NCBI RefSeq assembly: GCF_965641715.1
Contig: NZ_OZ282454.1
Reading direction: 5' to 3' (one strand)
Origin: Escherichia coli
GTDB lineage: Bacteria > Pseudomonadota > Gammaproteobacteria > Enterobacterales > Enterobacteriaceae
DNA length: 64,000 nucleotides
Position numbers and translations under genes: made by a program. This document shows positions 50,256 to 53,849 of this stretch, one piece after another. Under the pieces are notes generated by a model. That model ran no database searches and was not told where the DNA came from. It worked only from the letters and a program-made list of their open reading frames with translations. Position 1 is the stretch's first letter, and each line of letters begins with the position of its first letter.

Positions 50256-51072
50256 GCAACTGGCAGCCGGTTATCTCATTGATTTTTATTGCCAGTAGTT
50301 CTGTACTCCAGGGTGAATGCTGGTAACCGATCTTCAGTAGACTTCGCTAATTATTATGCGGATGTTATGACAGATTATAACAGGCGTTTTGCCAATATTT
50401 CTCGGCATGATTTTGATGTTCACCGATAGCTTGAAATTAATGATGTTCCAACAGCATTTTTCACGTGGCGAGGATCTCATAGTGTGTCAAAATCCCTGAG
50501 GGTGCGATATGACAAAGTACAGTATTTGACTGAAGACACAGAGTTAAGGTGAAGGGCAATCGGGAAATATATCGAAATCTGGCCCGCCGACTGAATGGGG
50601 TTGTTCTTCCCTACTCTACTTATGATCGTCTTTCAGAAGTTGACCTAGGAGCTATTGGTTTCGCTTTATGCATGAAATTCTCAGAGTGTTCAGTTTTGTG
50701 GTTGTTTTTTATTTCATATGGAGGGAAAATGAAAGAATAATCTTACTATGAGAGACGCATCGGGCAGTACGTATATTCCAATCGTAGTGTTTCATCGGAA
50801 ATACTTAAAACTAAAGATAGATAAATTTTTCCGATTTCTGGTGTTTTGATAACAGATGTCACGAAAATAATGAAAACAAACTTCAAACAATAGAAATGTT
50901 GTCTATAATATCAAAAATATCCTGGATGGCAAGGCAGGGTATAAATATGATTTATCACATATAAAAATTAATCTTATTAAAGTAGTGTTATTACTGGTTG
51001 CTGGTTGTCTTTAAATAGATTTAATCTAATTATATATCTGAATGCAGAAATCTGTTTTTTTTCAGAGGGGGA

Positions 51073-51918
51073 ATGATGAGAACAAAAGTATTCAATAATC
51101 TTCTTGAATGGATTGAGGAAAACTTATCAGCGAAAATGAAAGTGGACGATATAGCAAAAAAAAGCGGTTATAGCCGACGCTATATATATCAACTTTTTGT
51201 TGATAAATTAGGGGTAAGTCCTATCGAATATCTTCGGGGAAGACGGCTATGCCAAGCCACAAACTGGTTAAAACTCACAAATGCATCAGGTCAACAGATT
51301 GCTAACAAACTAGGATACTCATGTTATCAGGCTTTTAGCAGGGATTTTAGAAAACACTTCAATGTCAGCCCTATAGAATTTAGAAAAAATCATGAGTGGA
51401 ATATGAATGGGATTCAAGTTACTCCTTTTATAAGTGAAATATCAACGGATATTTCATTATGTGAAATATTAAATATGTCAGAAATGAAAATTTCAGGTTA
51501 TGAATTTTCTTATACTGAATCAGTTCCTTATCTTGCAGAAAACAGGCTCGGAATCAGAAAAAGTATCATTTCCCAAGAGATTACTAAATGCGGAGGGGAA
51601 TTATATATACTGTCTGAGATAGATAAAAAAGATGATAGCGAGAATTCTTTTTCTGTAAAATGTTTTATAGGTGTTAGTGGCGAGGTTAATTACAAAAAGT
51701 GTATTTTAAAGAAAGTTTACGCAGGAAAGTATTTGAAATATAGTTTTTCAGGAAGCTGGGAGGAATACAAACTGCTCCCAACATTTTTATCTGTAAGAGT
51801 TCTTCCATTATTAGGTTTAATAAGAAGAGATGTTTATGATATCGAGAGGTTTTATTGTGATGAGGATTATTTATCGGAAGGTAATATTTCTTGCGAATAT
51901 TACATCCCCGTTATTTAG
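51073..51918 (+). CDS. AraC/XylS-family regulator with N-terminal HTH (Rob/MarA-like)
   Basis: 281 aa; HTH signature in first 110 aa (SGYSRRYIYQLF...SPIEYLRGRRL...IANKLGYSCYQAFSRDFRKHFNVSPIEFRK), C-terminal effector domain; low GC. Confidence 0.8.
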   Translation: MMRTKVFNNLLEWIEENLSAKMKVDDIAKKSGYSRRYIYQLFVDKLGVSPIEYLRGRRLCQATNWLKLTNASGQQIANKLGYSCYQAFSRDFRKHFNVSPIEFRKNHEWNMNGIQVTPFISEISTDISLCEILNMSEMKISGYEFSYTESVPYLAENRLGIRKSIISQEITKCGGELYILSEIDKKDDSENSFSVKCFIGVSGEVNYKKCILKKVYAGKYLKYSFSGSWEEYKLLPTFLSVRVLPLLGLIRRDVYDIERFYCDEDYLSEGNISCEYYIPVI

Positions 51919-52210
51919 CATCGGATGCTTGAATTAAAAAATAAACAACACCATGAATTAAATATATTGAAATATAATGGTTGTTGCGGTGGTTTTATAT
52001 TCGTGTTGTTGCTTGTATAATTATTAACATTGCAGTTAATAAGTTGGACGTAGTTAAAGCCTGGAGAAATATGTATAAATACCCAAACAAAATAACATTA
52101 ACAATCATTTCCACATTTGAAAACAAGCTAAACCCCAAAGCATTTATTATATTGCAGTTTGATTACTTCATTGCATGGATAATGATATAGCTACCCAATG
52201 ATATTAATTT

Positions 52211-53044
52211 GTGTTTTTTGAAATGAAGAAAGTGATCGTAAACTCTGTTGTTGAATATATTGAGCAATCCCTTGAATTATTTCGCGTGGATATTGATTGT
52301 TTGGTAAAATATTCTGGATATAGTCGACGGCAATTACAGCTTATATTTCGTGAGTATACTGGTATGCCTCTCGGTAAGTATATAAGATCACGAAGAATTT
52401 GTAGAAGTGCTTTGCTACTGCGACTAACAACACTTCCTTTATCTGAAATATCCAATCGGCTGTTTTATGATTCACAACAAAGTTTCCAAAGAGAATTTAA
52501 AAAAAGCATTGGAATAACACCATTAAGTTACAGGAAAAAAAATGTGTGGGGAGGTGGAGTTGCTAAGTTCAATACTGATTGGCATTATGAACTATCATAC
52601 TGCGGAGCGTTTTTTTTGGAAAAAATAAAACTATCAGGGACAAAGATTACATACAAAGAATGCATTCCTTTTTATGGGGGAGAGTCAAACTCCAAATGGG
52701 ATATAATATCAGAATATGTTGATAAACATGGAGGTGAAATCATAATTGCGCATGATTTTAAAGCATGCCAGGAGCCTTCTGATAAAGTGCTTATAGATTC
52801 TTGGTTTTTTATGGATAAAAATGAATCAACAGTAAATAAAAATATCAATGGTGGATGGTATTGTCTATTTTATTTTTATGGTAGTAAAGAGGCATATCTA
52901 CAAGCAATAAGTGCTCTCTATGTTCATTTATTATCACCATCGGGTTTATCCAGAGGGGAAGGCGTTGATATTGAAGTGATACGTAAGATAAATAATAACA
53001 CATATGCCATTTATTACTATTTGCCAGTTGTTCTTTGCTCCTAA
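52211..53044 (+). CDS. AraC/XylS-family regulator with N-terminal HTH, paralog of 51073-51918
   Basis: 277 aa, same architecture; low GC. Confidence 0.75.
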   Translation: MFFEMKKVIVNSVVEYIEQSLELFRVDIDCLVKYSGYSRRQLQLIFREYTGMPLGKYIRSRRICRSALLLRLTTLPLSEISNRLFYDSQQSFQREFKKSIGITPLSYRKKNVWGGGVAKFNTDWHYELSYCGAFFLEKIKLSGTKITYKECIPFYGGESNSKWDIISEYVDKHGGEIIIAHDFKACQEPSDKVLIDSWFFMDKNESTVNKNINGGWYCLFYFYGSKEAYLQAISALYVHLLSPSGLSRGEGVDIEVIRKINNNTYAIYYYLPVVLCS

Positions 53045-53148
53045 GGATTCCAAGTAAATACTTTTATGGTGGTCTTATGTAAACCATATCCTTTGATGAA
53101 GGATATATACTTTAGTGTTAATGATCTTTTCTATGAGCATTTGCATAT

Positions 53149-53733
53149 ATGATTTATACTATCTTGACAAGAAAACCATTTAAATTTATTTGTACGCTTG
53201 CTATTCTGATATTGGCAGTGATTATCCTCGTTTGGATGGTCAGAACTCCTACAATAATTGATATGCATTATGTTTCTACACTAAGTAAAAAATACCCTAT
53301 AATTTTTCTTATCAGACATGGGGAGCGCTGTGATCGTTCTTCCAATGTATGTCTATCCTATCCAACAGGAATTACGGAAAAAGGAACTTATAAAGTGCAA
53401 GAATATGGGAATGTATTTAATAAAATATTCTCTCCATATGTAATCTATGCTACCGATACGGTCAGAACTATTCAGACTGCTAAATATTTCTCCGGAGGAG
53501 AAAAGCTGATTATTCCTGATATATATACGTGTAGTGATAATGCAACAAGTAAACTCAAGGGATATTCTTCTAAAAATAAAGTTACAGTTATTTTTACACA
53601 TAACCATTGTTTATCTCGCATTGCAAAAAAAATAAATGGCTGGCACTTAAAATCAGACTATCTCGAAACACTAGTCTTACATCGTGAAAATGAAGAACTT
53701 ATTCTAGATGGGATTATGCAACATGAACAATAA
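53149..53733 (+). CDS. Ais/PmrG-like histidine phosphatase
   Basis: 194 aa; N-terminal TM, catalytic LIRHGERCDRS, and ...NVCLS...TGIT.KGT...YATDTVRTIQTAKYFSGG.KL...VIFTHNHCL... matching recalled E. coli Ais. Confidence 0.75.
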   Translation: MIYTILTRKPFKFICTLAILILAVIILVWMVRTPTIIDMHYVSTLSKKYPIIFLIRHGERCDRSSNVCLSYPTGITEKGTYKVQEYGNVFNKIFSPYVIYATDTVRTIQTAKYFSGGEKLIIPDIYTCSDNATSKLKGYSSKNKVTVIFTHNHCLSRIAKKINGWHLKSDYLETLVLHRENEELILDGIMQHEQ

Positions 53734-53849
53734 GCTTCCTGTTTAACTCAACTCAATAATAAATCAACTCATAGTCATGCTTGCTTTTTTTTGAAATTTT
53801 TTTATTTCTTTATGTCATGGCTGAACTTCTTGTTCAGGAGCGGGATATT

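Follow-up and report, generated by a model that had tools for sequence, protein, structure and literature searches.

An AT-rich plasmid islet near aah-aidA of Escherichia coli encodes a Caf1R-like and YkgA-like regulator pair and an Ais-family phosphatase

What do the three genes of an AT-rich plasmid islet do, and does their closeness to the aah-aidA adhesin locus have a functional meaning? These questions are raised by positions 50256-53780 of a 64,000-nucleotide (nt) stretch of Escherichia coli DNA (contig NZ_OZ282454.1; the whole stretch is the window hereafter). The window is a segment of an IncF-type plasmid, a pig E. coli virulence plasmid. An original prediction, made from the letters alone, had described a low-GC islet with two AraC regulators followed by a phosphatase, and the open reading frame (ORF) list and GC profile bear this out. 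The islet is sharply AT-rich, with GC of 0.30-0.35 from about 50500 to about 53750 against 0.46-0.57 on either side. Exactly three long ORFs lie in it, all on the plus strand, at 51073-51918 (281 amino acids, aa), 52211/52223-53044 (277/273 aa) and 53149-53733 (194 aa), and its boundaries are real, formed by insertion sequences (IS) of the IS630 and IS21 families. Copies at 96-99.9% nucleotide identity are found in 12 of 72,556 PLSDB plasmids and 7 of 5,426 complete E. coli genomes; every match is on a plasmid and nearly all sources are pigs. The islet is, overall, a largely explicable accessory module, and each of its genes is a new, uncharacterized member of a known family. On balance, we favor the view that IS elements have trimmed an accessory module down to this islet, its core, that the module accompanies aah-aidA loci on IncF plasmids from livestock Escherichia, and that its regulator pair locally activates surface genes.

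51073-51918, plus strand: reg1, AraC/XylS regulator of Rob architecture, YkgA-like, 281 aa
52223-53044, plus strand: reg2, regulator of the same architecture, Caf1R-like subfamily, 273 aa
53149-53733, plus strand: Ais-family branch-1 histidine phosphatase, 194 aa, predicted N-terminal membrane helix; intact here
53625-53632, plus strand: A8 homopolymer within the phosphatase gene
43550-48588, plus strand: aah (43550-44725) and aidA (44725-48588), the adhesin locus linked to the regulator pair
49773-50330, minus strand: IS630-family transposase remnant, left islet boundary (ORF 49773-50255; annotated as frameshifted and partial; query bases 3-73 hit IS630 transposase genes in hundreds of records)
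50331-51072, plus strand: leader of about 740 bp 5' of reg1, without a recognizable gene
53781-55111, plus strand: IS21-family istA remnant and istB, right islet boundary; this junction also occurs in the diverged cattle plasmid

Relatives of the two regulators

Both regulators belong to the AraC/XylS family, with two helix-turn-helix motifs in a DNA-binding domain of about 100 aa. Pfam places HTH_18 at residues 27-105 of reg1 (E 8e-21) and 32-109 of reg2 (E 2e-17), a GyrI-like domain at 131-280 of reg1 and a Cass2/GyrI-like domain at 177-273 of reg2. HTH_AraC matches both proteins too, so that across the two the DNA-binding match covers residues ~14-109 and the GyrI-like/Cass2 match residues ~131-280. 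Domain E-values in the islet range from 1e-17 to 1e-56, which is far beyond chance. This domain order puts the helix-turn-helix at the N-terminus and the effector domain at the C-terminus, as originally proposed. It is the architecture of Rob, and the Rob structures 1D5Y and 7VWY align with both proteins over their full length, Rob being the top solved structure. The two proteins are only 27% identical to each other, and thus are old paralogs rather than the products of a recent tandem duplication.

The label "Rob/MarA" that had been attached to the pair is correct for the architecture but not for the identity. On the RobA equivalog models NF012228 and NF011701, reg1 scores 133.8 and 121.3 bits and reg2 scores 102.8 and 89.2 bits, far under the curated cut-offs of 380 and 426 bits, so neither is Rob itself. 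They also differ from Rob in being plasmid-borne and restricted to Escherichia plasmids. Nothing places them in a characterized chromosomal regulon: they carry generic names in RefSeq, and we found no literature on either. Their close homologs are very few. A search of 100,044 species genomes gave distant AraC matches only and no close relative, though this is a weak negative, with two N-terminal peptide patterns as the query.

It could still be argued that reg1 and reg2 are plasmid versions of Rob/MarA-type stress regulators, which would switch on the chromosomal mar/sox/rob regulon for efflux and antibiotic tolerance instead of local genes. Their top NCBIfam matches are indeed RobA, RamA, SoxS and MarA, and the structural match to Rob points the same way. 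However, we consider this very unlikely, given the low RobA scores, which are comparable to the 129 bits that Caf1R itself obtains on the RobA model. The first recognition helix (SRRYIYQLF in reg1, SRRQLQLIF in reg2) is also unlike that of MarA/Rob, which we take to be SKWHLQRMF, and the relatives of the pair consistently flank surface-structure loci.

The relative that is most informative for reg2 is Caf1R, the characterized activator of the F1 chaperone-usher (caf) operon of Yersinia pestis. Its domains are laid out in the same way, and it binds to a 15-nt repeat that overlaps the caf promoter's -35 element (PMC8470410). Over 272 aa, reg2 and Caf1R share 35% identity (E 4e-46), with higher identity in the N-terminal DNA-binding domain, and reg2 is closer to Caf1R than to Rob. 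The similarity spans the full length for reg2 but not for reg1 (26% identity, E 7e-18). In a matrix of pairwise identities, one subfamily unites reg2 with Caf1R and with two plasmid proteins that have 59-62% identity to Caf1R; a second comprises YkgA, two plasmid proteins and reg1. Since those other proteins stand at 59-62% to Caf1R, reg2 is a more distant branch, and it is 37-38% identical to Caf1R-like proteins beside other surface loci. Reg1 is 29-35% identical to YkgA (33% over the full length) and to the plasmid proteins L033_292 and L035_284.

These two subfamilies recur together. Three surface loci that are unrelated to one another are flanked by a Caf1R-like and YkgA-like pair: on a Salmonella plasmid it is a Caf1-type chaperone-usher operon, on an E. 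coli plasmid a polysaccharide-deacetylase/GT4/DUF535 operon, and in the window aah-aidA. In the two other pairs (L035 2442-3296 with 8001-8870, and L033 8001-8834 with 10866-11744), a Caf1R-like protein 59-62% identical to Caf1R is combined with a YkgA/Rob-like one. Such recurrence suggests a two-regulator design that is general among adhesins gained by horizontal transfer. Caf1R and reg2 share their two domains, and the gene for each is AT-rich, carried by a plasmid and adjacent to a locus for a surface structure. The difference is that reg2 has no chaperone-usher operon nearby, its neighbors being the autotransporter locus, an EAL gene and the phosphatase gene, and that it has a YkgA-like partner, whereas none is annotated beside caf1R on pMT1. 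Caf1R adjoins its operon and diverges from it; the neighbors of reg1 and reg2 are surface genes too, but IS elements intervene and the gene order varies. YkgA likewise adjoins an adhesin gene on the E. coli chromosome (eaeH, for an intimin-like protein), though its identity to reg1 is low and the locus is a different one. To our knowledge, YkgA is itself uncharacterized.

Linkage to aah-aidA and to an EAL gene

The regulator pair travels with aah-aidA. In the window, the adhesin locus is 2.5 kb to the left of the islet, and aah-aidA is present in all 12 islet plasmids (version A hereafter), where the aidA alleles are 100%, 93% or 87% identical to that of the window. A diverged version of the pair, version B, has 69-70% amino-acid identity to version A, and its two regulators have an EAL gene between them. 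Version B occurs on 28 plasmids and on gut-metagenome contigs; aah-aidA, or an aidA remnant truncated by an IS, is present on at least 22 of these plasmids. Where copies of version B were examined, the pair is usually 2-4 kb from one or the other, and in one contig set it adjoins a different autotransporter of 894 aa. On pRHB11-C13_2 (cattle) and pRHB38-C10_2 (pig), the regulators are upstream of aah-aidA and in the same direction. Version B also agrees with RefSeq in the start of reg2, the ATG at 52223; the GTG at 52211 would give 277 aa. A trace of the pair is further seen where the islet is missing. More than 20 classic AIDA plasmids without the islet have a 55-nt relic of reg1 (89% identity, codons ~6-23) just 3' of aidA, for example 39 bp after the aidA stop in pW1316-2 (L025 7001-7053). 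This plasmid lacks the pair and encodes two more paralogs of the Rob type, with 50-55% identity in the DNA-binding domain.

The homology to Caf1R, the recurrent pairing beside surface loci and this linkage are the reasons why we read the pair as local activators, and ligand-responsive control of neighboring surface genes is their most likely role. By analogy with Caf1R, we hypothesize that the pair would sense a small molecule or physical cue and would then activate neighboring surface genes, namely aah-aidA, the EAL gene and phosphatase gene, or both, with aah-aidA as the prime candidate. AIDA-I, which is widely used as a model for glycosylated autotransporters, marks virulence in porcine enterotoxigenic E. 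coli (ETEC) and Shiga toxin-producing E. coli, and we found no plasmid-encoded regulator of it described in the literature. Thus, a conserved regulator pair beside aah-aidA in two diverged versions provides direct candidates for AIDA-I control. We also looked at the ETEC tib locus, the other heptosylated-autotransporter system. Its regulators are unrelated to reg1 and reg2, TibD being CaiF/GrlA-type and TibB LuxR-type, and the EAL gene near tibA is unrelated to that of the window.

The EAL gene of version B has a counterpart in the window, where it has been displaced and now lies 11 kb from the islet.

39017-39718, minus strand: stand-alone EAL-domain protein, 233 aa, member of the ancestral module displaced by the inversion
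37564-49106, no strand assigned: 11.5-kb inverted segment between inverted IS481 copies at 37626-38711 (plus strand) and 48649-49734 (minus strand)

By blastn synteny, this segment, which contains the EAL gene, an IS200 family transposase gene, aah and aidA, is inverted relative to pPE041_2, a 99.9%-identical plasmid in which the EAL gene is directly to the left of the IS630 remnant and reg1. Because of the IS481-flanked inversion, the two halves of one IS630 remnant are now split between the two IS481 copies. The EAL protein of the window is 65% identical to the one encoded between reg1B and reg2B. Synonymous divergence (dS) between versions A and B is 1.05 for reg1, 0.96 for EAL and 1.49 for reg2, and the ratio of nonsynonymous to synonymous divergence (dN/dS) for these genes lies at 0.14-0.21 when the versions are compared and at 0.24-0.33 within version A (by gene, 0.18-0.32 for reg1 and 0.14-0.33 for reg2). 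The similar dS and low dN/dS values indicate that reg1, EAL and reg2 co-diverged under purifying selection.

As judged from its sequence, the EAL protein is a putative phosphodiesterase, which in the proposed module would lower cyclic di-GMP. The motifs EVL, N, ExxE, DDFG, KxD, EGxE and QGY are retained by eye. Like the stand-alone PdeH/YhjH-type phosphodiesterases, it aligns over the whole PdeH model (domain coverage 16-219), but it is below the cut-off (80 against 190 bits) and its best match is the uncharacterized phage family phrog_32988 (E 1.3e-56, full length). Thus, EAL proteins of this type occur in phages too.

Is the islet instead a decaying and functionless cargo, an IS-bounded leftover that hitch-hikes with aah-aidA? 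IS remnants on both sides, the separation of the EAL gene by inversion, the split EAL gene in some version-B copies and the frameshifted phosphatase gene in most relatives are what would be expected of such a leftover. Promoter and terminator signals are also not above chance: a sigma-70 scan gave 19 promoter-like sites against 17.4 expected from shuffles, and 0 terminators. Yet neither regulator is broken in any of the 10 version-A copies read, nor in those copies of version B that were examined (L012, L024, L029 and L042, the last being pRHB38-C10_2). The dN/dS values above speak against decay as well, and the cluster of the intact 194-aa phosphatase has 77 member sequences. We therefore regard decay of the whole islet as unlikely.

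Several observations weigh against the proposal that the pair controls its neighbors. About 33 of some 45 aah-aidA plasmids are without the reg1/reg2 pair, though with other Rob-like paralogs. Of the copies examined, all but pRHB38-C10_2 have IS elements interposed between regulators and adhesin locus; in pRHB38-C10_2, PLSDB lists no gene in the gap, but part of the gap matches an IS1-containing stretch of L024. With IS elements separating the genes in almost every copy, the adjacency could reflect shared descent of a mosaic region, and the regulation of aah-aidA is something that we infer. Motif, promoter and footprint scans identified no binding site for reg1 or reg2. The Caf1R repeat motif TGCRCRAAWAGCTAA, derived from R1-R4' of pMT1, has 10 matches with up to three mismatches in the window against 10.5 expected, none of them in the islet or 5' of aah, and the upstream regions of versions A and B are too diverged for footprinting to give clear blocks. 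The leader at 50331-51072 is poorly conserved between versions A and B. Its ORF at 50549-50740 (63 aa) had no match in the family-model search, Rfam returned no credible RNA (the sole match being a meaningless miRNA, E 0.29), and a repeat search within the islet found short AT-rich matches only.

The Ais-family phosphatase

Is the third gene, as proposed, an Ais-like phosphatase? The family assignment stands. The protein has the RHGE motif (RHGERCDRS) and scores 191.3 bits on NF011945, the Ais subfamily named "LPS core heptose(II)-phosphate phosphatase" (LPS, lipopolysaccharide), over model positions 12-199 of 201 and with a cut-off of 142. All residues invariant across 41 family members are kept (R56, H57, G58, R60, C61, D62, R106, Q109, H151, H153 and C154). 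Though the Pfam His_Phos_1 match is weak, the RHG motif, the second Arg and His and the alpha/beta fold are those of a branch-1 histidine phosphatase. The AlphaFold model (predicted local distance difference test 89) has an N-terminal helix at 9-32 followed by a compact fold of this type, and Foldseek aligns it with RosC, phosphoserine phosphatase, SixA and CobC at probability 1.00. Searches of PDB sequences, PHROGs and PADLOC with the phosphatase gave no match.

Identity with Ais or PmrG themselves does not follow. The window phosphatase shares with them the NCBIfam subfamily, all invariant catalytic and cysteine residues and a similar length, but it is only 37-39% identical to chromosomal Ais, which makes it a paralog, and it is plasmid-borne. 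By our reading of the sequences, Ais has a signal peptide, whereas the N-terminus here looks like an uncleaved anchor: the predicted helix 9-32 is preceded by R8, K9 and K12. This modeled membrane-anchor helix and the cysteines conserved in the family suggest that the catalytic domain is periplasmic. In the module, we suggest that the enzyme may dephosphorylate a sugar-phosphate of the envelope, with heptose II of the inner LPS core, the target of PmrG, as the most probable one. Three points count against this part of the proposal. The cut-off of the PmrG equivalog NF052369 is missed (102.7 bits against 170). A PmrA-type box, for which we assume the PmrA/BasR consensus to be the direct repeat YTTAAK-N5-YTTAAK, is absent 5' of the gene at up to one mismatch; the rest of the window has 4 matches, with 3.2 expected. 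The third is that the gene is often broken.

This last point comes from 10 islet copies that were read base by base. The phosphatase is frameshifted in eight; the 194-aa frame is kept only in the window and in pRHB38-C15_2. Six copies, from three sequence types, have A7 in place of A8 at 53625-53632, which yields a 161-aa product without the last two strands of the model, and the other two have different 1-bp deletions. The A7/A8 variation could be phase variation, inherited decay or a homopolymer assembly error. The phosphatase would be, in our proposal, a separately acquired and later piece of mobile-element cargo that is dispensable in most relatives.

The distribution of the family is in keeping with cargo. 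E. coli and Salmonella have at least eight clades of such paralogs, among which the window phosphatase is a branch by itself, and the other clades are overwhelmingly mobile-element cargo (examples at L022 5001-5567, L003 8001-8582, L018 5001-5576 and L038 7001-7585). About 1,380 of its 1,438 PLSDB plasmid homologs are traG of IncI1 plasmids, located between traF and traH, and IncI1 TraG is dispensable for plasmid transfer (PMC4288162). Others are single genes (morons) in lambdoid prophages, located between lysis cassette and terminase, and one is in a deposited phage. These are of the same family at 38-61% identity and are likewise single accessory genes on mobile elements; the window phosphatase differs in being a separate branch and in lying 3' of regulators, where those others occupy a tra operon or a lysis-terminase junction. 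We found no literature on plasmid or prophage Ais paralogs, functional studies included. The family is mostly mobile-element cargo, and could bear on phage and plasmid host range or on polymyxin or cation resistance.

The original prediction had also taken the closeness to aah-aidA as a speculative hint of a link to heptose metabolism or envelope modification. For the regulators, the genetic linkage described above is real in version A and version B alike; for the phosphatase, a link to heptose is unsupported, and any link to heptose or AIDA is speculative. Such a link would mean that the phosphatase is coupled to heptosylation of AIDA-I by Aah, trimming phosphate from adhesin heptoses or acting on heptose precursors. 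The 12 of 12 co-occurrence of islet and aah-aidA would fit, as would a different Ais-like paralog, of the P0006 type, which follows an aidA remnant at a distance of 1.5 kb beside version B, and a third plasmid in which a heptosyltransferase and an AIDA-repeat autotransporter have an EAL/Ais-like tandem 10 kb away. We nevertheless give this coupling little credence. Aah uses ADP-heptose and acts in the cytoplasm, whereas the signal-anchor helix and cysteines put the modeled catalytic domain, by prediction, in the periplasm. Most family members are on elements without aah, namely the IncI1 plasmids and lambdoid prophages. The copy near version B is from another clade and is no ortholog (58% identity, dS 2.3 against 1.0-1.5 for the regulators), and no phosphatase remnant was found downstream of reg2B in version B. 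Lastly, aah-aidA persists where the phosphatase is frameshifted. It is the predicted location, the family distribution, the lack of a version-B ortholog and the frequent inactivation together that make the heptose link weak.

A broader proposal is that the mobile Ais-family phosphatases, including the window copy, IncI1 TraG and the prophage morons, are an unrecognized class of cargo that remodels inner-core LPS phosphate and so alters binding at the surface, with effects on phage, colicin and IncI pili exclusion or on better display of adhesins. In the window, this cargo would be wired to the regulator pair and the EAL gene, and toggled by slippage of the A8 tract. We consider this proposal rather doubtful.

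Other arrangements of Ais-like genes were seen. An EAL gene is directly 5' of an Ais-like gene on plasmids carrying serine protease autotransporters of Enterobacteriaceae and on a mouse E. coli plasmid (L007 6464-7228/8001-8582; L037 9470-10246/10497-11090), and the EAL gene of L007 is only distantly related to that of the window. In sheep Escherichia plasmids (L029 4808-6556), the Ais-like gene that follows an aidA remnant at a distance of 1.5 kb is preceded by a YfdX-family gene, and contig L020 has a DsbA-like gene in the vicinity of an Ais-like one.

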